Source: Schmidtea nova (lineage: Eukaryota). From it: 64,000 nucleotides of DNA. This document shows, piece after piece, positions 1 to 63,925 of this stretch. How positions within the stretch are numbered: position 1 is the first letter of the stretch; every line of letters starts with the position of its first letter. The notes below the pieces were generated by a model, which was given only the letters and a program-made list of their open reading frames with translations, was not told the origin of the DNA and did not search any database. The position numbers and the translations under genes were made by a program. Location of the stretch: NCBI GenBank assembly GCA_044892505.1, contig CM097882.1, forward strand, positions 375,472,001 to 375,536,000, in the 5' to 3' direction.

Positions 1-3000
1 GTCAGCATCTCTTCATCTGTAATATCCGCATTACCCACTATTGCTGACATAGCTCTTTTCATCGATTTTATTAACGCTTCATAAACCCCTCCGAAATGTG
101 GCCCGGCTGGCGGATTAAACACCCATCTTATCTCCCGAGCTGTCAACTCCTTCGTTATCTTATAACCATCGAGTATCACATCTTTCAATTCCCCCGTTGC
201 TCCCACGAAATTATTACCGTTGTCTGATAACATCAACACTGGTTTTCCTCGTCGCGCAATGAATCTTATTAAAGCTTGTATGAATGAATCCGTTGTTAGT
301 CCGTACACTAATTCCAGATGCACTGCTCTAGTTTGTAAACATGTAAACAAACACACATATCTCTTTAGCCTCGCTTTTCCTCGGCCCTGGATTGTTAAGA
401 ATGGGCCCGCAAAATCAACCCCCACTTTTCCAAATGGTCTAAATGGTTCCGTCAATCGAAATGCAGGTAGTGGAGCCATCTTCTGGGACCGGCCAGAAGC
501 TCGTCTCTTTTTACAGATTAGGCATTCAAATTCCACCTTCTTGATTTCTCTTTTAGGTTGCGTTATCCAAAACCTTTCCTGCAGATCGCTTAATAAATGA
601 TTTGTTCCGGCGCAGTGATCTCTGTCTTGATGATATTTTCTTATTATCAGTCTAGTCACCCATCGTTTTGCACTTAATATTATCGGGTATCTTGCTTCTA
701 ATGTCATGAACTCTGCATTTATGATTCGACTGTTACTCCTGAGTAATCCTTCTTCATCGAGCATTGGATTCAAACTCAGTATTTTGCTCTTTTTATACAA
801 TGGTCTTCCGTCTTTTAACTCTCGTATCTCATCCTTAAAGATCTCATTTTGCTCCTCTCGAATTACTATCGTTTCAATCTTTTTGATTTCGTCGGTTGTT
901 AACTCCCCACTTCGGAGTTCCTTTTGGTTTCGACAATTATTTGCGAATCTATGCACCCATGCTCTTACTCTGAGCAATCTTTTCCACGATGAATAGGTTT
1001 CAGGTTGCCAACAGTTTACTTGATATTTTCCAGGTTGCTCTTCTTCTAAATTTATGACAAATGTCGCTTGCTTTCTTTCTCTATTTTCATTTACCTGTAT
1101 ATCTAATTTCGTTTTTGGCCAATTTCTTTCAAAGTGTTTTAAAAAAGGTGGTCCTTCCCACCACATATTATCTCCTATATGATCTGATGCCGACATTCCC
1201 CGAGTGGCTATATCTGCTGGGTTGCTCTTAGTAGGAACGTAACGCCATTGTTCAGCATCTGTCTCGTTCTGAATGGTTCTCACTCGGTTGGCAACAAATG
1301 TTTTCCATAGTCTTGAATGATGACGAATCCAGTGCAAGGTATCTTGACTATCAGTCCAAAACATGACATTTTTCAATTCATATTGTAACGCCTTTCCAAC
1401 TTTCTTAGCTAACTTTAGACCCAAACAGGCGCCCATCAATTCCAATCGTGGAATGCTAATTACCTTAACTGGAGCTACTTTTGCTCGTGCCGCAACAAAT
1501 TTCATTTTAACCTTGGCGCTCTCTTCTTCCCTAAGGTAACAAACCGCTGCATAGGCAGTACTAGACGCATCAACAAATACATGTAAGCGCCACGGGTTGC
1601 TTTGCTTCCCCAATAATCTCCTTGGAATCATTACTCGATTCAATAATTCACATTCTTCCATCCAACATCTCGCTCTTTTTTGTAATTCTGGGGGTAAAAC
1701 ATCATCCCACTTACTTCCCATCATCCACGCTTCTTGCATTAGGCATTTGCCAATAATTGTGAATGCACTAAGCATTCCCAAAGGATCAAAGATACGTGCT
1801 ATCCAACTTAATAACATTCTTTTCGTGATTTTCACATTGTCTGCCGTTCGTCCTTCAAATCTCAATAAATCGTCCGTTGCGAGCCAGTACATCCCCAATG
1901 TCTTCATCGTGACTGTTCTATTTTCTTCTATTGTTAACGACTTGGCTTGTTCTTCGATCGGAATTGTTTCCATTACTTTAATCGAGTTTGACATCCACTT
2001 TCTTGCCCTCATTCCTGCTTCTGCCCACAGTAACTTCAGATCCTCTTTAAGAATTAGCGCTTCTTCCTCCGTCTCTACTGAGTCAATGCTGTCATCCATG
2101 TATGTAGATTTTATTATGGTCTCAGCCGCTCTTGCGTAACTTTTTTCATATCTTCTCGCGTGTTGTTGGGTTACATATTGTGCAAGAAACGGGGACGTAT
2201 TCAACCCGAAAACTAGTCTTGAAAATTCAAATTGCACAATCTTCTCACCCTCTTTCCACAAAAATCGTAAGTAAGGTCTGTCTTCTTCCGCAACTCTTAT
2301 TTGTAGATACATTTCGGCGATATCGCTTACTATGGCCACCTTAAACCGTCTGAATCTTAACAAAATTTCGAAAAGATCATTTTGCAATTTCGGTCCCGTT
2401 TCCAAAACATCATTCAAACACTTTCCATTACATTTTGCTGCAGCATCAAATACAATCCGGACTTTCGACGTTTCTTTTTCCTTTCTTACAATGGGAAAAT
2501 GAGGTAACATCCACTTCGTTCCCACCTTTTCTTGTTCACTTAACCTCCTAATGTAATCCTTACTTTCATGATCCTTCAAAATTCTTTCATATTCCTTCTT
2601 CAACTCTTGATCTTTATCTAATTTTTGCTTTAAACTTTCTAGGCGTTTCATTGCCATTTGTGTATTATTTGATAACTCTTCTTTTCCAGATTTCCACGGT
2701 AAACTCACTTGATAAAACATTCCTCTGTTAACCATCTTTTCTTCCGTGATTTTAATAACTTCATGATCCCTTTTGGTCAAGAGCGCCGGGTTCTCCTTTA
2801 AGTTCTCGATTTCCCAGAACAACTTTACCTGTCCAACTAACTCCTCGTCCTTGGATAAATACGTTTGAACAAAGTTGGTTTGGTGGGTCAATGACACGCC
2901 CAACGTATTTCCACCTACACAGGTCCAACCAAGCGGAGTTAATCTAGCGATTGGTTCGTCCATCTTTCCATCCACTTCCTTCAGCGCTCTTTGCAAACCT

Positions 3001-6000
3001 AAATAATCAGCTCCAATAAGAACTTGCACCACTTGCCGTTCATCAAGCAATGGAAACCGTATATCCTTTAGATGTTCCCATTTCCATTTTTCCTTTGCCC
3101 AATTTATCACTCGCATTTCCCCGGTTACACTCTTCACCGCTGCAGCTGTAAACCTTTTCCTCATCTTCTGATCATAACTTATCAACGTCATCGTGACTAT
3201 TCTTGTTGTCATATTTTGAATATGACCTCCGATGACGCTGACAGGAACTATTTCCTCTTTCCCCTTCAGACCCAACTCGTCTGCAATGCTCTGACTTATG
3301 TAGCTAATGGAGCTTGCATCGTCTAACAGCGCATTTACTTTAATTTTCTTCGCTCCATGCTCAAGGTAGATCGGTATCGTCCTCAAGCTTAGGTATTTTC
3401 GCTCCCTTTTTAATAATTCATCTTTAGTAGCCGACATCAATGTGTTTTCCTTCCTTTTGGACTCTGACTGATCCACATGCAGTAGGTTACTGTGTTTCAG
3501 CTTACACCCCTCTCTAGTACAGAATGAAGCCTTTCGACATTCCGACGCTACATGATTAGACTTTAAACAATTAAAGCATAACTTCCAGTCTCCTACTGCT
3601 TTACGTCGCATTGCGGGGTTCATTTCTTTGAATTCTCTGCATTGATCCAAGTAATGATTTTCCTTGCATTTCCAACACTTCAACTTTGTGCTCAACAATC
3701 CGTCTCTTGGTATGTTTGTCTTGTCTTCCTTCCAATCTGCTACTTGCCCAACAAGTGTCCGGTTCCCTTGCCTTGGATTCCCAAGTTCTCTTGACGGTCC
3801 ATCCTGTCTCTTCCAATCGTTTCTTCTATTGCCATCCCCGACTCCATAAAGGGTTTCTCTTGTTGATCTTAACAGCTCGACTTCATCTTGTAACCAATTT
3901 CTCAAATCTTGGATACATTCGGTTACCTTTCTCTCCTTAAAGTCTTTCTTCCACTTGTATAGCAGCGAGCAGGGTAGCTTTTGCAGGCATCTCTTCAATA
4001 AGTAACTATTGTTCATTTCGCCCTCTCGTCTATTATTAATAATTCTAACTTCTAGCGTTTCCAATAGCCCAACAAACGCCTCGATTTCCAGCATTTCATT
4101 CTCACGCACGGGTCGGAACCTTTCGATATCTTCCAGAGCAGCTAAGTAATTTCGTTCTTCCCCGCCATATCTTTTATCAAGCTTTTCTTTTGCCATTTTA
4201 TAACCCGTTGCAGAAAATCCTAAATTTTCGATCAGCCTTAGCGGTTCACCTTTCAGATAGGATCGAAGGTGTAACATCTTTTCATCATCATCTCCATGGG
4301 CACTATCAACACACGTATGGAAAGCAGCTTTCCAACTTTCATATTCTTTTTGGTGTCCATCAAATATCTGGATCCGTATCTTCTGCATCTTTTCTAGTCT
4401 TTTCTTCGTTTCAGTTCCATTGATCTCTTTAATTGTATTGCTGTCATCCGACCTAACTGACTGATTGGCCTTTGACGAAATTAACTCTTCCACCTTCTCG
4501 TTCTTATTTTCTATCTCTTGTAAATCCGCTTCTAGCCCCGTTGTTGTATCTGACCTTCCTAATCTTTTACTAATATCCACCAATCTTTCAAAACTCTCTA
4601 TGGCACTTTCCATAGCTTCCTGATATTCATCAAGGACATGTGTTGCATCTTCTGCCAACATATCATTCATCCATCTGTTTCTTAATTTCGTCAATCTATA
4701 TTTGACACTCCTCTTCTTTCTCAATCCTTCCTCTAATTCCTCCTCTTCATCATTCCCTCCACACAGTCTCAGTGCCAGATGAATAGTAGACCCCTTTTGA
4801 ATGTGGTAATCTGACAGGATTCTTTCGCCTACCAATTGTTTACCTGCAAATATCAATCTCTGTTGATCAGGCGGGATTCCCTCTTTCTCTTGGATCCTTG
4901 CTTTTATTTTCTCAATAGAGTCCCCCGGTTCAACTTCCAGTGTTATGGTTTTACCTGTTAGAGTCTTAACAAAAATCTGTATTCCACGTCTCAATCGCAA
5001 AACAAAAGGTAAAGTTGACTCCATTTTCTTTTCTTTCACTCGCGAACTCTTATTCTTTAAACTTGTCCTTTCATCACCACTTGCTATTGAATAAAAACTC
5101 AATAATTCCCCTATTTTATTCATATTCGCCCTGTCTTCATGATTACCCAATTTAATATTTTTAACAATTTTATTATAGAACTTTTTATGATTACTTTTAT
5201 CTCCCCTTATTCCTACAAAAGGTTCTAAGCCTTTCAAAATTTTATCTTGTTGCAACATTTCCCGGCTGATATTCAAAGAAAATTCTTCGCTGTCATAACC
5301 AAGGCACCTACTAACATTTACACCTTTAAATACCGAATTATCTTTTACTATACATGTTGCTTCATAAGCAGGTGACACCATTTTTTCCCGGAATTTAAAA
5401 GAATGCTGGGGCCCATAGCAGCCGTCTTTCACAATATCCGGTAGCCAAAGCATTCCAACCTTCACTTCCCTTTTCAAACGCGCTTGGGAGGGAATGTTGG
5501 TCCATACCCCAATTACACATTTAAAACATTTATAAAAATTTACGCAAAACATATTAGGCTTTTTAATAAAAATATACACTAACAGGATTCCTCTCAGACT
5601 TCCAAAGTGTGCGTGGCCCCCCGGTGGGAACCACGCTCTGCTACCATTAATGTTTTTGATAAAATGTAACACTGTTTCGAGGATTTTATTATTAATCATT
5701 GTAAGAAGGTTCAGTTTGAAGAGTTCATTTGAATCATTGCGAAAGCGACATCTGTGGATTTTTGAACCAGGATTCGATATTGGAGACAATAGAGCGCTTT
5801 GACCAACATTGTGTGTCGACAGAACTGAAGGCCCCTCGTAATGAAATAACACAGTTTCGAAAATGGAAAGGTCATAATTAAAGTCATCCAATTTCACAAG
5901 TTTGGCACAATCATCAGGTTCGGCACCTGGTTTCGCAGACGAGAGTCCTTTATTTTCCGACTGAAGCATCGCACCATTTAAATTCTCCAGATCCTTCCAT

Positions 6001-6176
6001 CGGATTAGCCAGTCAAGAAATCTCTGCTCGCAATTTTCATAAGAAGCATAATCATTAATTGAATGAAATTGAGCCAAAATATCGAGTCTGGAACTCGTCA
6101 TTTGCAATTCATTCGAAGGCATCCAAAAGTTCCAATAAACTAAAAAATCCACTTTCCATACTTGCATTGACGACAT
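1..6176 (-). CDS. Extended polyprotein (>2050 aa): LTR-encoded N-terminus, unknown domain, ubiquitin, Gag, PR, RT, RNase H, IN
   Basis: Manual translation finds no stop from 6236 to the ubiquitin unit. ATG 6176, ATG 5024, protease Asp (3323), YMDD (2102) and integrase Met (50) share one frame. Absence from the ORF track is consistent with no stop before the window edge. True start codon uncertain (6176, 5552 or 5024). Confidence 0.85.
4755..4982 (-). other. Ubiquitin domain embedded in the BEL polyprotein
   Basis: [76 protein letters not shown]; 60/76 identical to canonical ubiquitin by manual count; preceded by [13 protein letters not shown] (tail of a preceding unit). Confidence 0.98.
5631..5646 (-). 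promoter_or_regulatory. Primer-binding site (initiator tRNA-Met)
   Basis: TGGTAGCAGAGCGTGG, 4 nt after the LTR-terminal CA; complementary to the 3' end of tRNA-iMet. Confidence 0.9.
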
Positions 6177-6433
6177 TTCCCGAACAAAATCCAAATTTAA
6201 AGCCTTCCGATTAAGTAAAATTTGAACGATTTCAAATCAAAACTTAAATTCCAATTATCACAATTTTAAATCTAAATTCCATCCAAACTGGAATAATAAA
6301 ACAAACGAATCTAACAATAAATTCATCTAAAAAATCAATAAAAACTCAATCAAAAATTCCAATCTAAAAATTACCCAGACTAATGCGCACACAGGCGCTG
6401 ATAAAGAAAATCAAATGCACACACAGACGAACA
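5651..6433 (-). repeat. 5' LTR of the BEL element (~780 bp; outer boundary +/- 20 bp)
   Basis: Starts TGTTCGTCTGTGTG, has AATAAA ~35 nt before the terminal CA and is followed by the PBS; partner LTR is outside the window. Confidence 0.75.
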
Positions 6434-6861
6434 ACTACATTGAATGTCACATCAATGACCCTAAATTTGCTCCAATAAAATGCTTTCAAATAGAAATCTT
6501 ACGGGCAAATCTTTGCAAAACCATTTTTCGAATGCCATACAGAGCAATATCTGCGCAAACTCTACTATGTCCAATAAATATTAATAAAACTCATTGGATT
6601 ATTTTTGTGTATTGTAAAACTTCTTTAACTTCATACTTTGTAGATCCTCTTTTCAACAACCGCCATTCGTTGACCAATAGAGCCTACGCTCTTCAAAATA
6701 CAATCGCTTTGAATCGTCTTTTTAACCTTAAAGCTGCACTATTTTTCCACCCACATAAAAACTTTGTCTACCAAAATAATAACTATGACTGTGGGCCCTA
6801 CATCTGTGCTTATGCTATGATAAAAGTGGTACATGGCAAAAATATCCTGATGATTTTATAG
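6434..6861 (+). pseudogene. Ulp1/SENP-like (C48) cysteine protease domain of the non-LTR element
   Basis: PININKTHWII (His), YFVDPL (Asp), QNNNYDCGPYICAYA (oxyanion Gln and catalytic Cys). Confidence 0.9.
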
Positions 6862-7778
6862 AACATATTAGAAAAGATGTCAATCAATTTAAACTTACTT
6901 TAAATAACATAGTCCCAAAATCATTTGGAGGTGGTGAATCTAAACTTACTAACTCTAAGAGAGTAAAAAAAGACACAACTCTAAATATTTTTAATAAACA
7001 CGACCACATCTTCCTTATGAAACGTAATGCCTGCCTCTCGTCTTTGATTACCGAATGGTTTAAAGACCATAAAGACATCTTGGTCCTGTCACAAGAACTG
7101 ACACTAAATATAATCTCTAGAAATAACTCATTTATTAGAGAAAATGTCACGTTTAAAAATTTTCTCGGGATTAACCAAGTCATCAGTGTTATCCAAAATG
7201 ATAATTACTGGTGTTTATATCTTTTTTCTATTACACATGGTGCAAGTTACTTATTTCTGACCGTTTACTTGGCATCGGAGAAAATATTACTGACTACTTG
7301 AATAAGTTCTTTCTATCAACAAACATTTCTTTTAAACCTAACCACGGCTTGGAACTGGTGCCCAATATCTCTGATGATACAATTCTCTTTGGGTCGGTTT
7401 TTATTGAGCTTCTTGAGAAATTTTGTTTAATAAAGTTATTCATTTTTTAAATATACACAATTCATTAAACTCAATAAAATTAAGGGAAACAAATGAAATC
7501 TCTCAGAATCTAAACTTACTTAATTCTAAAATTTCGGATAAAATAATTTCAATGTTTTTTGATAATTTAAATTTACCCAAGACTTTTTTATGTTGATTGC
7601 GACCATGTGCACGGCTATTCTTGACGATTGTATTCAACACATAAATGATTTTCTGAATTTTTAAAATGTATGCAAATCACAAATCATCTTTGCGATTGTT
7701 GATCCCCTTAAACATCGTGAAATTTTGCTCATTCTCGATTATAGTGTTGACACCTTTAATCTTTAAAACTCAACATCT

Positions 7779-10700
7779 TTGACTGTGAACGACAATTATC
7801 TGTCTACTTGCAAAATTCTGAAAAATAAAATAAATGGCATAAAAGATACACCTGGCCGCGTTTTGAATCTTTCTGAATGTCCCCATGACATCCGCAGCTC
7901 AGGTCTAGTTAGTAAAATTCTCTTGTGTGCGTTTATTAATAATTTTTCGAAAAATTTGCCCCTTGTAAGTTTAAACTTGCGCGAGATTGGAGACGTGGTT
8001 GGTTCTTTGCTTATCTTTGTCAGGCAGCACGATAATATAGAAAACCCAGGTAACACTAAAATTATTCATAAAACTATATTGAGCGTTCCGATAAAACAAA
8101 AGAGAAATAATGCTGAACTATTTTTAATTAAATGTGCAAATTATAGCACAAATGAAATTATTCACGCGATTATGGAGCAATTCCCTGACATAGTGAAACC
8201 AGCTAAAAAACCATACTTGGGAACCAGAATTAAAACTTATAAAATTAGCAAATATAAATTGATCGATTTATTCATGAAATATATGAAGTCAGTTGTCAAT
8301 AAGGTCATCAACAATTTCGATGTACCGGCTCGACCAACTTTTCAGAACATAGTTAAAAACTTTTCACATGAAACACCTGCACGTGGGCATTGGGAGAAAC
8401 TATTTGACTTTTGTAAACACTCTCAAAATGTACTTCCTCTGGAATGCTTCTCGAATAGGGAAGTGATGTATGAACTTAGGAGGGCTGACAACACTAGTCC
8501 TGGTATTGATGGATTACAATATCGTGACTTGTTGCGTCTAGATCCTGATGGTCAAATACTTACTTTCTTGTTCAACAAGATCATTATTTAAAAGTCCATA
8601 CCTGACAGTTGGAAGGTCTTCAAAACCGCTCTAATCCCGAAACCTAATAAAAATGATAAATATTCAAATATATCATCCTGGCGCCCGATTGCCTTGCTAT
8701 CCATCATCTACAAAGTTTTTGCGTCCTTTCTAGCCTCTCGTCTTGCACGCTGGATAAACTCTAATAAACTATTACATGTTGGACAAAAAAGTAGCTCTCA
8801 ACATGAAGGTTGCGTTGAACACAACTCGATTCTGTCTGCTGCTCTGAAACATTCCAAATATAGTAAAAACTGTCCTCTTTCCATTGCTTGGCTCGACATA
8901 AAGGATGCTTTTGGTAGTGTCTTACATGATTACATGTGGTCCTTACTCCGATACACTTGGGTAAGTGAAGACTTTACCTCCATCTTACAACTTTTATATT
9001 CTGACACGAGCTACTTCTATAATTGTGGTCCTATTCTGACACCAAACATCCCAATTAAAAAGGGTGTCAAGCAAAGATGTCCCATCTCCATGATTTTGTT
9101 TGCTTTGGCGATTAATCCTGTGTTGGAAGCTGTTTCCAGAACAGTATTGTTGGGTATTTTGTTGAAAGTCGGTTCTAATTTCTGACTCCTGGTGTTCTTT
9201 TAACAAATAATCAACCCAACACAATAACCTTTATTTCAATATCATACTTTATCACAATGATTGAACAATATAAGAACTGTCTTTTCACACGGAACTTAAC
9301 TGCTTTCAAGTCACTTGCTGCGAGGGATAAGTCTCCCAACGGAAGATCTCCCTTTCTGGTGCGCAAACAAATGAATTAAATTTTACTCTACAACACTACC
9401 TTTTCGGACTCTTCTTCTAATTTTAATCGGTTCATTTTGAAATCTTATCTCTTCGACCCCTGGCCCCACATTGCAATTTGCTTCTGCTTTTATAGTGCTT
9501 CCTCCTTGATGCTTGATTGTTCTGTCTCCCAATTTTGACATTTTCATCTACGACTCAAATTAAACTGTCATATTGTAATTTAGTAGCTCTCGCCGTTTCC
9601 ACATCCTTAGAGCAAATTGAACTGTCACTTCGCTTGAGCGGGTTTCTCTCCTCTCTCGGGCTCTCCATTGGCTCGGGTTTCCCATTGTCTCGGGCTTTCC
9701 ATTAGCCAATTAATTCTTAATTAATATTTTAAATTTTAAATTGTTTCTTTCTGGGGACCCCCCATCGATTTTATTTTTATTTATTTGAATTCGTCTCATA
9801 ATTTGGCACACACCCATACCAATTTCTCCCATGATATATTAATTTTAAATTTTATTAATTTTTTAATTAATGTTTTAATATTTGGTGATTTTTGCAATTT
9901 TACTAATTTTATTACTTTTAAATTTTGAGTCACTTTGACAAACCCCAACAGTATGTGATGCTTTTGCTATTGGAGAATCATCTGTCAAAATTCTCGCGTA
10001 TGCTGATGACATCGCAATTTTCGCTAAATCTCCTAATGACCTGCAAAACTCATTAATACTGCTGTCACAACTGCAACCAATATTAACTTTGAATATCGGC
10101 CAGAGAAATGTGCTTATCTGCAACTTCCTAGAATTCACATTGACAGTGAAATTTCAATCAATGGCGTTAAAATTAAAAAACTGCTGTCTAATGAATTTTA
10201 TCAATACTTAGGTGTGCCAGTTGGCGAAGGAACTGACCAAAGTCCTTATGACATTCTATTAGAGGCACTCAAAGACACCAAAACACTTGCTGATTCGGAT
10301 TGGCTTGGGTGGCAAAAACTTAAAGCTTACAAAATATTTATCCATTCTCGCTTGATCTTCCCTTTTAGAACCCGTGAAATTAAAACTAGCGCACTTTCAA
10401 AATCTTATAATAATAAACATCTTTCAATTAACATCACTAGCCAGTTAAGGAAACTCTTAAGAAAAATGCTGCTTTTGCCTAATCACTCGGAAGTGAGTTA
10501 TTTCTACAATTCAACTGAAAATGGGGGAGCAAACTGTGTTGATCTTCTCGACGAATATCACACACAGACTATCACACACTTTTTTTCGATTAATCACGTC
10601 ACAGTGTGACTTTGCAAGGAAAATTAATCTTGACTCTTTAGCTTTTGTAACCAGTCCACGTCTTGGGATAAAAAATCCAACTCTTCAGGAAAGTCTTGAT

Positions 10701-11650
10701 TGGCTCAATGGAAAAGAGTCTCTTTCCCCATTCTGGAAAGAAAACTCGATTTCAAAGAGCTAGGATTGCGATTGCTTTTTTTGAGAAGACGCACGACATC
10801 AACATCACCTTTACTATCACCAATAATGTACCATGGCTCTATATTAACACGAACGCACGTGGTACATGTATCGTAACTCCGGACGAACGAGAGACCATGG
10901 TAAAAGTGTTGCACTTAGCGCTCAATGATTCATACTTGGTTAAATGGGAAAAAAGCTGTGTCTCAAACATTATCGCTTCAGCTGTAAAGCTTTCACCGAT
11001 AGTAAACAAAGCTATCTATCGCAGTGATTTATCCGAGATTGCTTGGAACTTTGTCCATAGAGCACGCAGCAACACTCTTTCCACCCTTGCAAAGCCTTAT
11101 AATAGTGGAGAGAAAAGACTCTGTCATCGATGTCATGATGAGGATGAAACCTCATCACATGTACTTCAATCGGGCAAAGTTCATATGACTTTGGGCTCTG
11201 AACGACACGATGCTTGCCTTAAACTCATTTCTAATCATCTCCAACTTAATAAAAACCTAATTGTTGTTGTAAATCATGCCTGTTCACTTGTTCCGAGTTC
11301 TAAAGAGCAGGTGGATTTGCTGATAACTGATGTTCTTAGAAAAAGAATCTTCCTTGTTGACATTAAATGTCCGAGTGATTTCTCATGTAACCTTGAGCAT
11401 GTAAATTTATTGAATTTGGAAAAATACAACTCTCTGAAAATCGATATTCAAGCTGCCAAGCCAGACTTTAAAGTTGAACTCGATACTTGCATTATAGGCG
11501 CTCTTGGCTCTTTTCCTGTAGAAACTTCTCAGGTCCTTCAGAAAATTGGCATAACTAAAGGCCAAGTGGCTGGGTTATTAAAAAAGTGAGCAATTAGTAA
11601 TATTACACACTCGGCAAAACGATGGTACACTGCCCATTTTCGACAATGAG
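7779..11650 (+). pseudogene. RT / zinc finger / restriction-like endonuclease of the non-LTR element
   Basis: ORF fragments 7779-8591, 8694-9147, 9955-10070, 10214-10609, 10696-11589; RT rejoins as EAVSRT|VCDAFAIGESSVKILAYADD across the solo LTR. Confidence 0.9.
9148..9950 (-). mobile_element. Solo LTR (803 bp) inserted in the RT
   Basis: TGTTGGG...CCCAACA termini, 4-bp TSD GTAT; TATA-like and AATAAA on minus strand. Confidence 0.9.
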
Positions 11651-11680
11651 GAGCAATTCATTCGAAATAACAACAACTAA

Positions 11681-11787
11681 ACGAGTCTGAATTCAACCGA
11701 TGTCGTTCGATCTCGGAAGTTAAGCAGGTTAAGGCCTCGTTAGTATTTGGATGGATGACCGCTTGGGAATACGAGGTGCTGTGAAAC
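11681..11787 (+). rRNA. 5S rRNA: 5S rRNA gene lacking its first ~12 nt
   Basis: CGATCTCGGAAGTTAAGCAGG (box A), TTAGTATTTGGATGG..GACCGCTTGGGAATAC (box C), paired CCTCGT/ACGAGG helix; 107 nt present. Confidence 0.93.
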
Positions 11788-11804
11788 TTTTCAAACCTTT
11801 TTTT
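11788..11804 (+). terminator. Pol III terminator of the 5S gene
   Basis: T4 then T7 runs directly after the 5S sequence. Confidence 0.75.
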
Positions 11805-13893
11805 AAAAATTTATTTCCTTTTCCTTTTTTTATTTTTGATAACAATTACTTTACTTTGCTAAATATTTTTTTTAATTTAAATTAAAAGTTTGAAATATCA
11901 TAACTTTGTTTAAATAATCTCTTTTAATTTTTCTCGTTTCAAAAATGATTGCAACTCAAACTCAAATGCCTAATGGTGAATGTAAATTTGGAGATGAACA
12001 ATGTGTTCTCTCCTCTCGTGTGGATGAGCTTGTTATTTTTGGAGGGTTTATTTTTCTTGATTCACTTTTATTTACCTTTTTTTCTTTCCTTTCTTAATTA
12101 TTTCTTATTTACTACTTCATTTTGTTTATGAATTTCTATCTTTGACCTGAAAACATCTTAATTAAAAACTCTTTTGCCCCCTTTTTCTTGACGTTTTGCT
12201 TCGGTGAATAAAACTGTTTAGCTCAATCAAAAGGAAATTTTAGCCTTTAAAAAAAACAACCAGATAATTATTGTACATTTTCGAATACTTCACATAATCT
12301 GGATTTTGCTGATCAAAGAGAAACTTAACAAGAACAGAAAAGCCAGAATTAACAATAGAACACCTCACTGATTCCGATTGTTCTAAATCAAAGAAAAGTT
12401 TATCCAATATTGCAATGCCGGAATCCAAATCCGATGAAGAACACATTAACTGCCAGGGACAATACAGGCAAATTCGAGTGACAATCGAGTCGAGAATACC
12501 CAGAATATATCCAGATATTTCAGACTCTTCTGCCCTAGAATATTGTCAGTATGGAATGCTCCATGTTGAGCTATGTCCCATTAGAAAATTATCATATTTT
12601 ATTGTAATAAAATTTATTATGTTATAAATATATAATATAAATATTGTATTTATTTAAAAGGTCAAATCATTTACATATTAATTGTATGACCACAACAACA
12701 TCTTTCCCGGAGATTATATATTGATGTGTGTTTACCCTAGCAACATCTTCCTTTAAGATTATATAGATGTGTGTGTGTGTTTACCCTAGCGACCGGTGCT
12801 ATGTGAAAAAAGTGGTGCAGTGCGCTCACTATCACCTACTTAAGTGGTCACAGTCTTTTGTTATTTTTTATAATAACCGTCCAGACATGATTGTTTACGT
12901 TTGTTCATTTTTTAAATGATTGAATTATTAAAACACAATTGTCGTGCTATAATATTAAATTATTATGTTAGAAATTTAAAAAATCTTTATCCAGCCTGAT
13001 CAGAGTTTACTTGATTATTGCTCAAAATAAATAGAACTAAAGTCAGCCATAAACGTAGTAAATTCAGAATTAAATTTATTCTGAATTTACTACGTTTATA
13101 TCTGTCTTCAGTTTCATGTTTGAGTTCGCGATTTAGTATGTTAAAATAAGTAATATTCAAATAATTTAACCATTTTAAATAAAATAGTTAAAAAATTAAA
13201 ATTAAGTTTTTACTCTTTCATAGACCGATGCAGGTTCACGGACCACCACTTTAAGATCCACTGATTTATATGATAAATTTGTAAAATATAAAATGTTGAT
13301 ATTTATTTGATAATAATTTGGCAATTGTGATATTCAATGTGATCTAGGGTAGCAGAGATTAAGTTATTTGGTATAATTGACAAATGCTTTCCAATGAAGG
13401 CTGTGAGGATATTTAGACATGGTTATTAGCGAGCATTAAAATTAAAATTAAATCATTATTTGTAGATAGTTAAAATAAGTTTTAAATGTTTAATTAAAAA
13501 TATTTCCAAGTTGATCCGTCTATTAAAGATTATAGAGAAAGACTTCGGATAGCTTTTAAAAAAAGACCACGATAACGCAGGTTATTAAAGCCGCGTTTGA
13601 ATATTGGCAAACGAATGAAGAACCAGAGATTTATTTTGGAAAAATAAAGAGTCTTGTGGACAAACTTATGAGTCATGAATGAACAGCAGAAAATTAGAAG
13701 AACAGCTATTAGGTACATTGTTCCGCGGAAAAGAAGTTGAGAATGAAATTATGGTCAGATGAAATCGGAGGTACAGAAGAAATAAAAAAGAAGATCAAGA
13801 AATTACACGAAGTTAGGAAAATGAGCGAAGAGATTTACGCGGTAAAGGAACGAATACCAGAAGGAGATAAAAAGAAGCTATAAAGAGGTCACC

Positions 13894-14529
13894 ATGAAAA
13901 ATAATAGATATGATGAACCAGGAAATAGAACCAGACGATATAGAGAGAACGTAATTCAAGATAATAATATTATAAAATGCTTTTGTTTCGGGGGTCAAGG
14001 CCATGTAGAAAGGGAATGTCCAAACAGACAACGAAGAAATATCGAGTGTTATGGATGTGGACAACAGGGACATACCCAGAGAGAATGTCCAAATAGGCAG
14101 CGAAGAATTATTTCATGTTATTCATGTGGAAAACAAGGCCATATCCAGAAAGATTGCTTGAATAGACCAAAAAGAGTCGTTACATACTATACATTTGGAG
14201 TAGAAGGACACGTAAGTAGAGATTGTAAAAAAGTCAGATGTCAAAGATGTGGATTAGGAGGTCACTGGGCAGAAGAATGTTACACAAATCTGAATAGGTT
14301 GAAACAAAACATGACAAATAGAGATAACAGACAACAAAAAGGAAATTACGAAATGGAAACAACGAAAGGAAGAAGAAATTACAATGGAACAAGGACCTAT
14401 CAAGATACACACAATGGACAAGTTGCATATATAAGAAGTGAAAGTTATGAAGACGATGAAGAGAGGTTCTCTAGTGCCCCAAATGAGAGGGTCCCGACAA
14501 GAGAGGACGTTGTCGGGGCGGTTTTTTAA
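13894..14529 (+). pseudogene. Gag nucleocapsid region with five tandem CCHC knuckles
   Basis: CFCFGGQGHVEREC, CYGCGQQGHTQREC, CYSCGKQGHIQKDC, YYTFGVEGHVSRDC (degenerate), CQRCGLGGHWAEEC. Confidence 0.88.
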
Positions 14530-14761
14530 ATGATGTCGGAGACTCCCACAAGGACAAAACAAGAGAGGAAATAGACTTGTGAGAGAATAGAAAGGATAAG
14601 GAGAAGAAGCAGGAAGACGAGGACAAACGAGTTGTAGAAAAAGTTAATAAGTTTTTTAAGAAGAAATTTGAGGAAAATGAGATATCTGAAGATGAAGAGC
14701 ATATAAGTACAGAAATCTTGACAATAGACAAAAGAGACCAAGTATTATCAGGTATTACATA

Positions 14762-17350
14762 ATGAAAGGTAGACCTAGTGTGTTAATCAAAATCCCAAAT
14801 CAAGAAATGGATTGTTTACTTGATTCAGGGGCAACGGTTAACGTTATGAGTTGGAACCAGTATAAAAAATTTTATAATATTGAATTGATGAAAACGGCAA
14901 GTGTTCTAAGATGTGCAAATGATAAAGTATTGGAAACAAAAGGTAAAGAAATGATGAATGTTGAAATAATAGGAATATACAAAGTGGTAAGGTTCACGAT
15001 TGTGAACCACATAACACCAGAAGTGATTTGGGGGTATAGAGTTGTGGAAACAATTTGGATTTCAAATACAATGGCCTCAGAAAGAGATAAAAACAATGAA
15101 TTATGAACACATGTGTAATATCGAAGCAAAGTTTGGAAAACTGATAACAGGAACAGAAAGATAACAGAGCAAAAAGCATTAAAAGTAAACGATGCGGTAT
15201 TAATAGAAATTATAAGGAATAATCAGGATGTTTTTATGGTAAACAAATGGAACATCGGATGCACAACTTTGCTAAAACATAAAATAGATACTCAGGGGAA
15301 TCCAATAAATATCAAGCCACGAAGACAACCAGTTCATTTAGAACCAAAGATTGAGGAGGCAATACAGAATCTTTCTGAAAATGGAATTATTAAGAAATGC
15401 AATTCATCGTGGAATACGCCACTGGTTTGTGTCTGGAAAAAAGATAAACAAGACATCAGATTATGTCTAGATTTCAGACAGTTAAATTTAGTTACAAATA
15501 GACAAGCGTATCCAATGCCAAATATAGCGGAGATATTGGATAGATTGGAAGGAGCAAAACATTTTACGTCAAAAGACCTGGGAAATGCATATTATCAGGT
15601 TAAACTTAAAGAAAATTCAAAAGAAAAGACGGCATTTTCAACCACGACGGGGCCAGAAACATTTCAGGAGTTAATGGGAAAAGTACTAGGCAACATAAAA
15701 GGTACAACTGTTTATTTGGATGACATTTTAGTATTCACAGAGACAAAAGAGCAAAATTATATGGTTCTGAAAGAGGTATTAGGAAGAGTTAGACTAGCAG
15801 GGTTGAGAATAAACCCAGAAAAATGTCATATACTGGTTCGAGAACTAAAGTTCCTTGGGCACATTGTAAACAAGGATGGTATACAAACAGACCCATCAAA
15901 ATTAGAAGCAAAAAAATCATTCCAGAAGCCGAAATTTATAAAGAATCTAAGGAGTTTTTTAGGGATATGTAAGTATTATAGAAGGTTTATCAAAGACTAT
16001 GCCAAGAAAGCTAAAACGTTGGAGGAATTAAGTGGAAAAAACAATGTAAAGTTAATCTGGACAGAAAACTGCGAAAGGACCTTCGAAGAAATGAAGAAAG
16101 CACTAACAGAATCCCCTGTTTTAGGATACCCAGATTTTACAAGAGAGTTCATCCTAGATACAGACGTCAGTTTTGATACAATTGGGGCTGTACTATCACA
16201 AAGAGATGATAATGGTTACGAAAAGGTTATAGGATATGGGTCACACGCGATTAGTAGTCATGAAAAGGGTATTGTATTACGAGAAGAGCTGCTTGCAATT
16301 TACTACTTTTGTCATCATTTTAACCACTACCTGTACGGCAAAATTATTTCCAAAAAAAAGTACAAAGCAATCACGTTCATGCTATCCACAAAAAGCCAGT
16401 AACTGCGCAATTTCAAACATGGATCAACCATCTCAGTAGTCTAGACATTAAAATGGAATACAGAAAGGGAGTGAATCACGCAAATGCCGATGCATTGTCA
16501 ACAAGTACCTGTGGAACTTGTACACAATGTCTCTTGAATCACGAGAATGCAAAGACCGAGAAAATGAAAACACGGTGTATAAACATGATAAAGAAAACGG
16601 AACGTTGTAAATGGTAACAAGATGATGAAGAAATAAAACAAATAAAGGAAGATATAGCACAAGGGTTATGCTGGAAATACATATTGAAAGAAGGGGTAGT
16701 AACGACCAAGGAAGGAAAAATATGGATTCCGAAAAATAAGAAACGGGAAATGATAAAAGAAATGCACGGATTACTATCACACGCAGGAGCTGAAAAAGTG
16801 ACAAAATATATAGCTGATCATTATGATATGAAGGATATAAAAGAATAGGTGAAAGAAACAATTAGAGCTTGTGAACCATGTCAAAGGACAAAGGTTGTTA
16901 CGACATAAACGAAGGAAGAGACAATTAAACTTAAGGCAATTTAGGACAATAAGAGATTATGTAAACGCATCATTAAAAGAAGGTAATCGAACAAGTTGGT
17001 CAGGTATATTGTCAGAAATTGAATTTACATTAAACGCAACATTTCAAAAGACAATTGGGAAGAGTCCTGCTGAAGTGGTATTTTGTAGGAAAATATTCAG
17101 AGAACGATGGTACAGTAAGAAACCGGAAGAGCATGCCATAGAAAAACCACATGAGGAAATTGTCACTAGGAGAGAGTTTAAAATTGGAGATTCGGTACTA
17201 GTAAAAGTCGAAACTAGATCCAAAGACAAAGACAGATACGAAGGCCCATACGAAGTGATTCAGAAGATACATGACAGACGATATACGTTATGGGACGAAA
17301 ATGGAAGATTGATTCAAAAGAATGTAGAGAAGATGAAAGAATTTTTTAAA
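14762..17350 (+). pseudogene. Gypsy pol (protease, RT, RNase H, partial integrase)
   Basis: LLDSGAT, RLCLDFRQLN, YLDD, FILDTD, H..H..CEPC, YEGPY; deletions in RT (TTTG^PETFQ) and in the integrase core. Confidence 0.92.
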
Positions 17351-17359
17351 GAAGGGGAA

Positions 17360-17709
17360 TGTGAGGATATTTCGACATGGTTATTAGCCAGCATTAAAAT
17401 TAAATAATTATTTATAGATAGTTAAAATAAGTTTTAAATGTTTAATTAAAAATTTTATGTTTAATATAATAATATTTTAAGTAAATTTTATAAAATAATT
17501 TTATATTAAAATAGTTTAATTTAATTTAAAAAGTTTAATCTTAAAAAAAAATAATAAATATGAATAAAATTTATAAGTGTTTTAAATAAAAATGCTCGTT
17601 TTTAAATTTGTTTAAATGTTCTCAAATAGACATACATTTTTCTTGAAATAAATATTTTGGGTGACTTTAGAATTTGAACTAACCGAAGATGTTTTAACAA
17701 CATCTAACA
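17360..17709 (+). repeat. 3' LTR of the Gypsy element (350 bp)
   Basis: TG..CA, follows the PPT, followed by the TSD; first ~95 bp match 13402-13500. Confidence 0.92.
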
Positions 17710-42898: not shown

Positions 42899-43012
42899 GG
42901 GTATTGATAAAAATTAAAATGAATATTTTTATTGATAAAAATTAAAATTCTTAAATTCCAGAATTTAAATAAAATTTATATATTTGCTTCAATCGATGAG
43001 CTTATTGATAAA

Positions 43013-44881
43013 ATGCCTTCGTTGTTTAAAAGACTTACGGATTCATTAAAACGGACTAAACCAAAACCTAGTTCTCCTATAATATTAAATGTAACTACCC
43101 CAAACAGTGATCACGGTGAAGCCATATCACCATCTTCCTCTAACATCACATCAATAACGTCCTTGGGAAATCCGACAATAAAAGTTAAATCAAAGTTTTT
43201 AAGCAATAAAAGTTTCATGAACAATAATTCTGATTCCGAGAGATATTACGAAACTTGGAAAATGGGGGACAATAATCCTAATGAAATAAGCGTAGTAAAC
43301 TGTTTGTCTGGTTACAGTAAAGAGATCTACTCTAACGATACAATCAAATCCTATTTAAAACAGGAATCAGAATTCGAAAATCAGAATTCATCAACGCCAG
43401 CTCAAAATGACATCAATTCAAATATAAAATTGAAATTATTGGCTGACCATGAAAATTTACTTCAGAAAAACAAGAAAATACGAAAACGGTATGAAAAGGC
43501 AAAAAGTCTGAATGATTTATTGAAAGCCGAAATTGCGGAATTGGAAGCTGTAAACAAAAGACTTACTTCTGACAACGCAGAAACCCTTCATGAGGCCATA
43601 AAGCATCGGTTTTTGAAATTAGAATCGGAAGACCTTTCGAAAAAAACAGACCAATACAAACAAAAACTCGAAGAAAAAGAAAATCTAATTGTGAAATTTC
43701 AAAAACAATTCGAAAACATTCGAATGAAAAGTACTGAGGCCTACAAATTAAAAGAAGAGGCTCAACTGGAAGCCTCGCATTCCTGTGTGAAATTGAAAGA
43801 ACTGACGAATGATTGCGCAGAATTAGATATCTACAAAAATGAGAACGCTCAGAAACGGTTCTTTTTCAATGAATTGCAAAATATCCTGGGAAATGTGAGA
43901 GTTTATTTGAAAATCAAACCAACGGTCGGAGAATCGTGCATTTCATTTATGGGTGACGATAAAGTTTTATTGAAAACAACAAATAATAAAGAAAAACAAA
44001 TAATTTGCCAGTTTACTCAAGTTTTTCAGCCTCAAGTAAGTCTTAAAGAAATATTCGAAGACTACGAACCTTTATTAATGACCGTTGTCGATGGATACAA
44101 TTGCAGTTTTATCAATTATGGACAAATAGGAAGTGGGAAATCTTTAACTTTATTCGGTGAAGATAACAATCCGGGAATTTTGAGTAATTCTTTGCGCTAC
44201 TTGTTATCGACAACCGAAGAAAGCACGAATTGTAAATATAGCATTTCATTGTCGGCAGTTCAAATAAACAAAAATAACATTTTCGATATCTTTCGAAGGA
44301 AGCAAGTAAACATAGTTGACGATGGTCATAACTTGATTTTACGGAACAATGATGAACGAGTTTTGAATAATATCACTCAATGCAATGAAATTGTTCGGCT
44401 AATCGAGTTGAATAAGGATTCTTTAAAACCAGTCCCTAATAGTTACAGGACATTTACGCACTTGGTAATTATTGTAAGAGTTATTGGTACTTGTAAATTA
44501 AGTCATAAGAAAACATGCGGAATTGCAATGTTTTGTGAATTAGCTGGATTTGAAAACGAAAATAATTTAAAGTTCTCCGAAAGAGATTACTTAAAAGAGG
44601 AAAAACTCGTTCAAGAGAGTCTCATTGATCTTGGGAAAAAACTCGTAACTTTAAAAGGAAAAGTGAGAAAAACGACTCGACCTTTGTCAATTCTAACGAA
44701 AGTTTTACAACCATGCTTAACAAAGAATTCGAAATGTGTTTTATTTATCCATTGCTTGAGTGACTCTGAAGAGCGGTATGCTATAACGAAATCAATTCAG
44801 TACGGTTTAGCAGTTATGCCAAAATTGAAAACACATCAGCCGAAACATTTAATTCAGTGGGATTTTGGTGATGATAAATAA
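43013..44881 (+). CDS. Intronless C-terminal-motor kinesin (kinesin-14-like), 622 aa, divergent catalytic motifs
   Basis: Low-complexity N-terminus, coiled coil, neck FNELQNILGNVRV, VDGYN, P-loop YGQIGSGKS, ELAGFE, LTKVLQPCL; first ATG at 43013. Confidence 0.92.
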   Translation: MPSLFKRLTDSLKRTKPKPSSPIILNVTTPNSDHGEAISPSSSNITSITSLGNPTIKVKSKFLSNKSFMNNNSDSERYYETWKMGDNNPNEISVVNCLSGYSKEIYSNDTIKSYLKQESEFENQNSSTPAQNDINSNIKLKLLADHENLLQKNKKIRKRYEKAKSLNDLLKAEIAELEAVNKRLTSDNAETLHEAIKHRFLKLESEDLSKKTDQYKQKLEEKENLIVKFQKQFENIRMKSTEAYKLKEEAQLEASHSCVKLKELTNDCAELDIYKNENAQKRFFFNELQNILGNVRVYLKIKPTVGESCISFMGDDKVLLKTTNNKEKQIICQFTQVFQPQVSLKEIFEDYEPLLMTVVDGYNCSFINYGQIGSGKSLTLFGEDNNPGILSNSLRYLLSTTEESTNCKYSISLSAVQINKNNIFDIFRRKQVNIVDDGHNLILRNNDERVLNNITQCNEIVRLIELNKDSLKPVPNSYRTFTHLVIIVRVIGTCKLSHKKTCGIAMFCELAGFENENNLKFSERDYLKEEKLVQESLIDLGKKLVTLKGKVRKTTRPLSILTKVLQPCLTKNSKCVLFIHCLSDSEERYAITKSIQYGLAVMPKLKTHQPKHLIQWDFGDDK

Positions 44882-61834: not shown

Positions 61835-63925
61835 TAGGGCTTGCAATACCGGATCAAATTTTCAAAACCGGTATTTCGGTATTTCATTATATTAATACCG
61901 GGATCCCGGTATTAATACCGGTATTTAAGAAAAAACAAAAAAAAAGCAAAACTACATTGCAAAAAATAGAAAAAAATATATTTATAAAGAAAATAAAATA
62001 TTTAATTCAATAACGAATAATTCGAAAGAATAAACTTTTTTTTAAAGTGCCACAACAAGATTTGCCTTTAAAATATGCCCTCAAAAATGTTAAACTATCA
62101 AGAGTTTTGTCGCTTAAGCTGGATCGAATTTTTGTGCACAACAGCCCTGCTGCTGAAAAGGCTCTTTCGGACTCGACGCTAATTGGTGGTATGGACATAA
62201 GGCAGTCATATACTAGTTGAAGATATTTTCCTCTAATATGTTCTACTTCGAAGTATGCTAGTTCCTGTTTTATAACTTTATAAAGTACTTTAGAATTCAT
62301 CATTTTTGAAATTCCACTCGCAGTCTTCATCACATTAACTTTCTTGGAAATTGCCATTTCTAGTTTTTCTTTCATTGTCATCGAACTTAGAATTTCTGGC
62401 TCAGAATCAGCAGATAACTCAGAAACGTCGATGGAAGAGGCTCCTATGTTTTCAATATCGATGACATCGATAGCATATAAGCGTTCCAATAAATTTATAA
62501 TTATTTTTATAATTGTTGCGTTGTTAATTCAATTAAAAATTTCATTTTGGTCGTCATCTGCTGATTCAGTAGGATTGTGCAGGTATTGTAGTAGACTCGA
62601 TAAATCAGTACGCCTTTGTTTTATACGAATAATTAGCTCTTCTTTGAATTCATTACTTAAAGCAGCATTCTGTTCTGTCAATTGATTAAACATAAATAGT
62701 AAAGCTGCATCTGCGCTAAGAAGAGTAGCATCTTGACGACAACAAGCTTCAACAGTTAATTTGATTGGAAGAAGAACTGAAATAACTGATGATGCTAAAG
62801 AAAAATCAATTTCTGAAAATGATATTTCGCCATTTAAATTTAAATCAATCAAAGCCTTTTGTATGCAGTTCTTTAACTGGACAAAGCGTTCTAGCATGGC
62901 AAGTAAGCTATTCCAACGTGTTTTAGAATCTAGAATTAAATTCAGTTCCTTTCCAAATTGTTCTTTAACATGTTTCTGTAAAGCTTTATCATTTTTCATT
63001 GGCGAACGTCTGAATAGCTTCACAACTTTTCTTATTTTTTTAATCAATGGACCTATCTGTTCATGAATAATTAAACAGTCAATTGCATTGTTTTCTTGAA
63101 GTATGGCTAAACTATTATCATCAAGATCACTATCATTTTCATCACTTGTATACTGGTTATCATCTTCGTTACAATTAGAATGTTCATTTTCTAAATTTTG
63201 GTGTATCATATTTATATATAAAACCTTAATGACAACCAATTGAATTCCGTGAACTAAGCAAAGTTGTTTCCTTGCACAAATCAACTTTCCAACTTTGGTC
63301 ATGACAGATGCACCATCGGTTGTAATGCACACAATGTGTTTATTTAAAGAAACTTGGAATAATTTAAGCTTTTCTTCAACGAGGGCAACACACTTTTCTG
63401 CAGGCAATGATCCTTGCACGCGAACTAATCCTAGGTTCCAGAATTTCTTGATGCCAGCATGAACATTTATATTTAAATAACGTCGGTTTTTTACCGATGT
63501 CCATTCATCAAATGTAAGACTAAATCGTTGTCCTGAAAGAATTTGAGATTCTAACTCTTTAATCATATTTGCACGAATTTTTTCACTGTACTGCACAACT
63601 AAATTTTTTATAGAGTTTATAGATTTTGGTATATTTTCATACCCTCTGGCAGTTAAACCTTTTCTGATATCCACGGAAGTGCAAAATATGTTAAACGACA
63701 AACCGTCACATGCCGTCATACGAGCTAAAACTGCAGACAAAGAATTGTCCGTTTCCGAAACGAAAAATGTTGTTATTTTCCCGCTAGAAACTTTGTTCAC
63801 TTTAGAAGTTGATGGTTCTGGCTCAATTTCAATCAAGAGGTTGGAGCTCGGAGCATTCCTTTTTTAAAAATTAATTTGGTGGAGTGTCTTTAGGTGGGTA
63901 TGCAAACCACTTGTACTACCTCTTT
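61835..63925 (-). mobile_element. hAT (hobo-like) transposon; one end seen
   Basis: Terminus TAGGGCTTGC with ACCGGTAT subterminal repeats; transposase upstream. Confidence 0.88.
62007..63836 (-). pseudogene. hAT transposase, one in-frame stop and frameshifted BED-finger remnant
   Basis: SLTFDEWTS, TTDGA, CLVH, TRWNS, SVESERAFS; STSGLHTHL remnant at ~63900. Confidence 0.92.

Follow-up and report, generated by a model that had tools for sequence, protein, structure and literature searches.

A dispersed RLE retrotransposon family of Schmidtea nova carries a piece of 5S rRNA in a subterminal repeat that is probably recopied at insertion

Analysis of a 64,000-nucleotide stretch of the Schmidtea nova genome (assembly GCA_044892505.1, contig CM097882.1, positions 375,472,001 to 375,536,000; hereafter the window) revealed a dead copy of a non-LTR retrotransposon family, termed here family B, with nt 13-119 of 5S rRNA placed in a subterminal repeat; the family probably rebuilds its upstream region by a jump of the reverse transcriptase (RT). 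The window copy (Table 1) is a degenerate Ulp1 + RT + CCHC/RLE element on the plus strand (Pfam PF02902, E 2.7e-5; PF00078, E 1.3e-11), and the Rfam model of 5S rRNA (RF00001) matches at 11669-11787 in the sense orientation (64.9 bits). The original prediction had been made for an Ulp1-encoding RLE element of the NeSL clade whose ORF end is joined in sense to 5S from nt 13. The element is present, the junction is real, with nt 13 at 11681, and the NeSL-clade reading fits the families found here.

Table 1. Parts of the family B copy and of the insertions that interrupt it (positions relative to the window)
Feature	Position	Strand	Remarks
5' half of the copy (R repeat, ORF1, ORF2 start)	-10880..-8319, upstream of the window		begins with the element's own repeat
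BEL/Pao LTR inserted into the copy	5648..6433	-	three-LTR tandem, 5-bp duplication
ORF2 5' part: remnant of the Ulp1-like protease and beginning of the RT	6433..9145	+	interrupted by stops and frameshifts
~800-bp insertion splitting the RT	9146..9946	.	TGTTGGG...CCCAACA ends, short duplication; likely a solo LTR
ORF2 3' part: remaining RT, CCHC knuckle, restriction-like endonuclease	9947..11680	+	
Carried 5S rRNA piece, nt 13-119	11681..11788	+	opens the subterminal repeat
U, T/A-rich repeat segment	11789..11925	+	once copied to the front, precedes the inferred start of the RNA
R, copy of the element 5' end	11926..12030	+	includes ORF1 ATG (11945) and ~30 ORF1 codons
Unique 3' tail up to the true element 3' end	12031..12620	+	homology to the A and C 3' ends in the last ~200 nt

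The joining of ORF2 to 5S is far beyond chance: the ORF-end motif continues exactly into the 5S piece in 179 of 189 cases genome-wide, and reversed-pattern controls gave 0. Such a fixed junction, together with a sister family that does target 5S genes, speaks for insertion of the window family into 5S genes at nt 12/13, as originally predicted; the remaining evidence makes this reading highly improbable. The 5S piece stands directly after the stop codon, the supposed short tail AATAACAACAACTAA being the codons N-N-N and the TAA stop (11678-11680) of family B ORF2 (in the window copy, a stop codon occurs earlier and 13 nt are deleted), and it is followed by ~830 nt of element sequence shared within the family. 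The element does not end inside a 5S gene; its 3' end lies at ~12620, in sequence with homology to the last ~200 nt of family A, a sister family. Nor is the flank native, although a native T-run terminator had been described: at the 3' border host 5S reads GTTGTGGACTTTTTTG and the window copy GCTGTGAAACTTTTCA, the 199-nt host 5S spacer is absent after the window 5S piece, and segment U shares with that spacer only short AT-rich matches. The missing 5S nt 1-12, expected beyond the BEL element, are absent; the 5' half of the copy starts with its own repeat, and 30 kb of upstream sequence contain no 5S match. Within 200 kb around the main 5S array no family B copy was found, all long matches there being family A copies (75-84%).

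Family B lacks target specificity, and its insertion sites are dispersed and AT-rich. Among 77 distinct 3' flanks, none lies in 5S and none in Polinton-like or tRNA-Ala sequence; TA/TAA runs make up 22, and duplications of at least 10 nt were found in 2 of 31 cases. Family B carries 5S as part of its 3' UTR; this location and the unrelated flanks are the two observations that the prediction itself had named as contrary to a 5S target. A separate candidate, that the LINE is a passenger in a larger transposon, was ruled out, as the sequence that copies share does not reach past the two ends of the LINE.

Comparison with two sister families showed that a 5S-targeting RLE family does exist, as family A with a fixed site in real 5S arrays and not as the family of the window. 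Family A (79% ORF2 identity to B; 75-79% nucleotide identity to the window copy) inserts at 5S nt 21/22, as seen in 13 junctions at four loci (control 0). Its flank follows the local 5S variant of each array, GGTT or GATT, and four different 5' junctions occur; both features indicate independent insertions. Family A is thus a 5S-targeting element with a fixed 3' junction in resident genes. Its specificity for 5S is not strict: a look-alike motif in Polinton-like ends serves as a second target (49 exact junctions), and 2 of 22 fetched junctions lie elsewhere. Family C targets tRNA genes. All three families are intact, with 79-92% protein identity.

The class assignment is based on the following features: (i) family A ORF2 matches RVT_1 (E 2e-26) and PF02902 (E 4.5e-6), with no APE match in the same profile search, (ii) the motifs C-x2-C-x8-H-x4-C and RVDL...DLKCP are present in A, B, and C, which gives the RT-CCHC-RLE order without APE of RLE non-LTR elements, (iii) R2 proteins give the best PDB matches (E 7e-46), and (iv) an N-terminal Ulp1-like protease, as in NeSL and Utopia-1_TSP, is found in family A ORF2 and in the window, with the protease residues H, D, and Q/C present. 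In a midpoint-rooted RT tree of 40 rows, built without named NeSL, R5, or Utopia references, A, B, and C group (100/100) among Ulp1+RT proteins, apart from a nematode, turtle, and arthropod clade. No R5 or LIN protein was among the matches listed (120 of 289), and a metagenome scan gave no relative among 106 pattern matches. The nearest counterpart in 3' ends and targets is planarian LIN25_SM, from the R5/LIN lineage within the NeSL clade, an RLE element found in tRNA genes and in Polinton-2/-4_SM with flanks mostly starting from nGAT (Kojima and Jurka 2015, PMC4640811, in the parts covered here). Its AT-rich 3' end without poly(A) resembles, by eye, the last ~40 nt of A, B, and C, the nGAT flanks recall family A (C|GATT), and the tRNA genes recall family C; however, the same parts of that paper do not name 5S among its targets and describe no carried 5S or subterminal repeat. 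Family B is not a SINE3- or Cassandra-type Pol III element, being 8 kb long with an open 1543-aa ORF2 and with T-runs after the 5S.

The layout of family B is (variable extension)-R-ORF1-TGA-ORF2-(5S-U-R)-tail, in which the 5S piece forms the start of a direct repeat that duplicates the 5' end of the element in subterminal position. In an intact copy, the 5' end and the 3' UTR share a 373-nt repeat with 100% identity; families A and C have no such repeat. Of 56 genome-wide R-ORF1 junctions, 46 were examined and 44 mapped: 24 of the 5' ends cluster near the ORF1 ATG (reference 7162-7225), and 20 are extended upstream, by 2263 nt in the longest case, with the whole 5S control region included in 13. 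In 16 extended copies having both repeats at intact spacing, the extensions show 33 differences from their own 3' segment versus a mean of 100.7 from 30 others (mean rank 0.084; nominal p 4e-9 in the rank test, which overstates independence, as the copies are related); two of the 16 have 5-6 others closer than their own 3' repeat, and one has 4. For U, the 5' haplotype equals the copy's own 3' haplotype in at least four groups. One sublineage has two variants in the 5' R only, in three unextended copies and in four extended to different lengths, and in these four U matches the own 3' copy, so that the switch can be placed close to the 5' end of the RNA. Some extensions begin at almost the same position (5691/5693, 7045/7045, 6850/6856), either because they could have been inherited from masters that were already extended or because of stall sites. 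Many family B copies retain the open 1543-aa ORF2 with intact CCHC and RLE motifs, and the family appears to be alive, judging from these reading frames. An Rfam search of 901 nt of the intact copy, with E up to 1, found no ribozyme at the 5' end.

We propose that this pattern arises by an RT jump, as follows. Family B RNA would start near the ORF1 ATG, a position suggested by DNA ends alone, and sequence upstream of this start would be lost on copying. On reaching the 5' R of the RNA, the RT would switch to the identical 3' R of the same or a sibling RNA and continue through U, 5S, and, at times, kilobases of ORF2. An unlikely alternative is that 5'/3' R recombination between sister copies forms tail-less tandem dimers, and 5'-truncated read-through RNAs of these give the extensions with no RT jump. 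It would yield an equally seamless junction and the same own-copy identity, it agrees with the pairs of near-identical extension starts, and the three-LTR BEL tandem beside the window copy demonstrates that such recombination occurs in this genome. However, a complete dimer is absent from the 46 junctions and two further loci, the longest extension covers 2.26 kb of a 7.3-kb unit, each of the at least four haplotype groups would need its own dimer, and upstream flanks differ between the extended copies shown. Under the RT jump, the restored U/5S region might, more speculatively, be the promoter or its chromatin context. For the sister families, such context would come from landing immediately behind Pol III genes (5S for A, tRNA genes for C), and carrying it would allow family B to give up target specificity.

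It is plausible, if somewhat doubtful, that the carried 5S part itself acts through TFIIIA/TFIIIC binding. A case of about equal strength for and against can be made for a passenger, i.e., a piece left over from an ancestral 5S target site or picked up when the RT switched onto 5S rRNA, with the A/T-rich U as the active promoter; this concerns the role of 5S only and is compatible with the RT jump. T-runs directly follow the carried piece. Pol III stops at T-runs and thus cannot make a long family B RNA. The internal promoter, described earlier as intact, is substituted in the window copy at 5S nt 78, 87, and 95 compared with both host and young B copies. Within family B (80 copies, 10 duplicates removed), the control region has 0.10 shared variants per site, compared with 0.08 for U and 0.07-0.14 for the tail, and this absence of variant depletion in the control region is in line with a passenger; an older lineage has five fixed changes in its 5S part. 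Compared with host 5S, family B shows no difference at the 75 positions of nt 35-109 versus 5 at the 22 positions of nt 13-34 (Fisher p 4e-4), with ~3 further differences in nt 110-120, and the first ~430 nt of the B tail are no longer alignable to A, yet the 5S core is kept, which argues against a passenger. Of the five nt 13-34 changes, however, three (T15G, A17G, G22A) fall in the motif recognized by family A; divergence may thus be uneven because these changes prevented re-insertion and the capture is young. 5S/LINE-1 chimeras are also known to arise without function (PMC13174262, in the part covered). The youngest 46 copies keep a host-identical core, but the 0 lineage changes at 108 sites versus ~1.8 expected are not significant. 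Only tentatively can family B be viewed as a site-specific RLE element freed from its Pol III-gene target, in which a 5S control region captured in a proto-LTR would let a TFIIIA/TFIIIC-bound promoter context be rebuilt at each insertion.

Mutsu of zebrafish is an APE element. Like family A, it inserts ~20 nt into 5S genes of tandem arrays; it is of L1/Tx1 type (Repbase L1-n_DR; PMC5340908, in part), whereas family A has an RLE, an Ulp1 domain, and a second, Polinton-like target. The TRIMs Cassandra and Ajax hold 5S-derived sequence with the control region inside a repeated end, as family B does, but these elements and SINE3 are short, non-autonomous, and transcribed by Pol III, as described in the covered parts of PMC10886601 and PMC10946416, whereas family B is an 8-kb autonomous LINE. 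Neither a 5S-targeting RLE element nor an autonomous LINE carrying 5S was found in the searched literature, including the covered parts of PMC5786205 and PMC8869645; Repbase entries and subscription papers, among them the work on R5 (Kojima and Fujiwara 2004), may already include a relative. The family B repeat duplicates the 5' UTR and the beginning of ORF1 subterminally in the 3' UTR and co-evolves within copies, in a TART-like manner. TART is a telomere-targeted element of APE/jockey type. In Drosophila melanogaster (PMC1636488, PMC5537684, in the parts covered), it has the same layout as family B, and the same jump has been proposed for it (PMC1636488). Family B, in contrast, is an RLE element, is dispersed, and holds a 5S piece in its repeat; the two are convergent, not related.

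A LINE with a promoter upstream of its RNA start loses this promoter at each jump, and R2-type elements land behind a host promoter. Family B, with dozens of young dispersed copies, would represent a second solution, a subterminal repeat recopied at insertion, which is a functional equivalent of LTR strand transfer argued so far mainly from TART; its intact RLE protein makes the RT jump directly testable. With family A, 5S rDNA joins the RLE targets, as far as the searched literature shows. Three intact sisters with 79-92% identity and different targets (the 5S/Polinton motif, tRNA genes, and AT-rich DNA) permit swaps for mapping target recognition, which is useful for R2-like gene-insertion tools. 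Family B also spreads at least 179 5S-like copies that will be annotated as genes. If the tentative reading of a captured promoter context were true, the element would carry its niche with it, and a living LINE-to-LTR-like intermediate would be found in the same genome as a natural series of RLE target change.

The copy in the window is a decayed two-ORF non-LTR element encoding Ulp1, RT, CCHC and restriction-like endonuclease domains, which is split by the upstream BEL element and interrupted by a likely solo LTR. The BEL/Pao element, a three-LTR tandem with 99.99% identity, has one frame (2238 aa in full) in which gag-pol is preceded by part of HSP90 (E 2e-17) and by a ubiquitin domain (E 7e-27); the genome has at least 150 copies of this HSP90/ubiquitin block (84-100%), and in many of them the frame is open over more than 2200 aa. 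The sole Rfam RNA in the window is 5S rRNA. The ORF end is joined to it from 5S nt 13, where the true match begins, much as originally described; the stretch taken for a short tail consists of the last codons of ORF2 (intact copies read ...IRINNN-stop), and 5S nt 1-12, expected beyond the BEL insertion, are absent at the 5' half of the copy located there.

Positions of the features in the window and in the genome
Feature	Location	Strand
BEL/Pao element	window 3-6236	-
Decayed non-LTR element (family B)	window 6433-11680	
Likely solo LTR	window 9146-9946	
5S rRNA (Rfam)	window 11669-11787	
Start of true 5S match	window 11681	
Gypsy-type gag/RT pieces	window 13846-17407	+
Kinesin motor frame, 652 aa without interruption	window 42923-44881	+
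DUF659 (hAT-like) frame	window 62007-63863	-
Host 5S array	G000:C2 8.12-8.22 Mb	
Nine array copies of A with 5S stub	G000:C2:8126427-8197373	
Long 5' duplications of A	L108, L111, L112, L116, L118, L117, L120; G000:C2:8162566	
36-kb Polinton-like element	L108+L244+L245+L118	
TGA between ORF1 and ORF2	L069 5009-5011	-
TGA between ORF1 and ORF2	L163, L160	
B cluster(s), 10 and 3 decayed 5' junctions	G000:C2:109.13-109.36 Mb and C2:162.6 Mb	

Comparison of copies across the genome revealed that the 5S piece is a carried part of the element's family, B: (i) the ORF end and 5S are both spanned in 40/40 scored matches (of 573 candidates) on three chromosomes, and the junction and post-5S sequence are common to the 30 loci listed, (ii) 179 of 189 exact ORF-end motifs genome-wide continue exactly into the 5S piece, and (iii) the copies are alike for ~830 nt past 5S, up to an end homologous to the 3' end of a sister family, beyond which the flanks are unrelated. 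No 5S lies downstream of the 3' terminus at 30 loci picked by this terminus alone. Over all loci retrieved, none of 77 distinct 3' flanks is 5S, Polinton-like or tRNA-Ala, so the predicted 5S-targeting RLE family is not that of the window copy; 22 of these flanks are TA/TAA runs. A whole-genome 5S search gave ~23,577 rough candidates (47 scored), far beyond what the arrays and B account for, and further 5S-derived repeats may exist.

Full-length B elements start with a copy of their own 3' UTR segment, which ends ~30 codons into the ORF1 copy; no such repeat was found in the sister families A and C. The 3' UTR thus holds a copy of the 5' end (R). Among 56 R-ORF1 junctions in the genome, 46 were examined (10 in two local clusters were omitted) and 44 were mapped. 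The two clusters of decayed 5' junctions in the table probably reflect local amplification. Twenty-four of the 44 5' ends fall within ~60 nt around the ORF1 ATG and 20 extend further upstream, 13 of them through the whole 5S control region and the longest by 2263 nt, into ORF2; this extended fraction is perhaps somewhat high, as 15 of the loci were initially selected because ORF2 was open over a long stretch or the ORF ends were paired. In the 16 extended copies that have both repeats, 33 differences separate the extension from the copy's own 3' segment, versus 100.7 for the average other copy, and the match holds separately in at least four haplotype groups. One sublineage has two variants in the 5' R only, whereas its extensions, of four different lengths, match the 3' copy; a template switch, as proposed below, would thus lie close to the 5' end of the RNA.

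The layout, the distribution of 5' ends and the within-copy tracking are read directly from the B copies. In the proposed mechanism, B RNA would start near the ORF1 ATG, the reverse transcriptase would switch from the 5' R to the 3' R, and this switch would restore the promoter region. Template jumping is a known ability of R2-type reverse transcriptases. The main alternative, tandem B masters made by recombination, is less likely, no full dimer being present among the copies examined. TART of Drosophila resembles B in layout and in the jump proposed for it (PMC1636488). B contains a 5S-bearing repeat like that of TART, and its copies across the genome show signs that this repeat is recopied.

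Family A targets resident 5S genes, yet not strictly, and for this family the prediction of 5S targeting holds. The host array (318-bp unit) contains ten copies of the 7.57-kb A element, all ending at 5S nt 21/22; with three further junctions at three other loci, 13 are in 5S (control, 0). Two of these other loci were read completely, and in each the flank has the 5S variant of its own locus and is therefore the resident gene. Four different forms of 5' junction indicate at least four independent insertions, and nine array copies with a single variant 5' junction in common may have spread by array turnover. Another 49 exact A junctions lie ~480 bp within a repeat whose ends are AGTAGTAG; it is Polinton-like by these ends and by a 6-bp duplication at the only element read over its whole length; some junctions are mirrored in both ends, and thus not all are independent. 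The motif ATACTAATnTr|GATT is common to the two targets.

Very long, variable duplications of the downstream target are frequent at the 5' end of A; in Polinton-like ends they measure ~227-403 nt, in 5S arrays 66, 91 and ~270 nt. The 5S stub ahead of nine array copies carries C14A, G21T and G22T, which destroy the recognition motif of A, and the same motif is altered in the 5S carried by B; these changes represent a possible escape from re-insertion. Three A copies lie in a 36-kb Polinton-like element that has no long ORFs itself; two of them are mirrored in its ends with an identical truncation point, and A likely hitchhikes on this element.

The carried 5S may have originated from a long 5' target duplication, as in A, where 5S directly abuts the element's 5' end, or from a reverse transcriptase switch onto 5S rRNA; in either case it would then have moved to its place after the stop codon. 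Between nt 35 and 109 it is identical to the 5S of the host, and the differences lie at its two ends, a pattern that would fit promoter conservation. The carried 5S is just as likely a passenger, since comparison within B gave no sign of selection on it and three of its changes destroy the motif recognized by A.

Family C, with 92% ORF2 identity to A, occupies one site of tRNA-Ala(AGC) in all five copies in the 90 kb read; one C copy lies in a tRNA-Leu-like gene. B is sister to A+C (support 99/95; midpoint-rooted tree of 40 rows from the 120 matches listed). ORF1 and ORF2 share one frame with a TGA between them. GTG CCT GCA follows six nt after the TGA, within a 25-nt stretch identical between A and B, and six of nine relatives compared have proteins starting with MPA or MPV at this point, which suggests that ORF2 may be expressed via GUG re-initiation or readthrough.

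The 3' ends and target types found here match those of LIN25_SM, a planarian NeSL-clade element of the R5/LIN lineage (PMC4640811 S6 Fig). The targets listed there for the lineage comprise 28S, tRNAs and other transposons, Polintons among them; the 5S target of A is absent from that list (PMC4640811). The 5S-targeting LINE described in the literature consulted is Mutsu, and a 2024 review lists SINEs and TRIMs as 5S-bearing elements. Outside Repbase, literature searches turned up no RLE element that targets 5S or carries it. Within that scope, A and B add 5S-targeting and 5S-carrying RLE families to the known kinds, which already include LIN25-like relatives and the TART-like layout; the claim of 5S targeting, wrong for the window copy and right for a sister family, led to the TART-like, 5S-bearing repeat of B.
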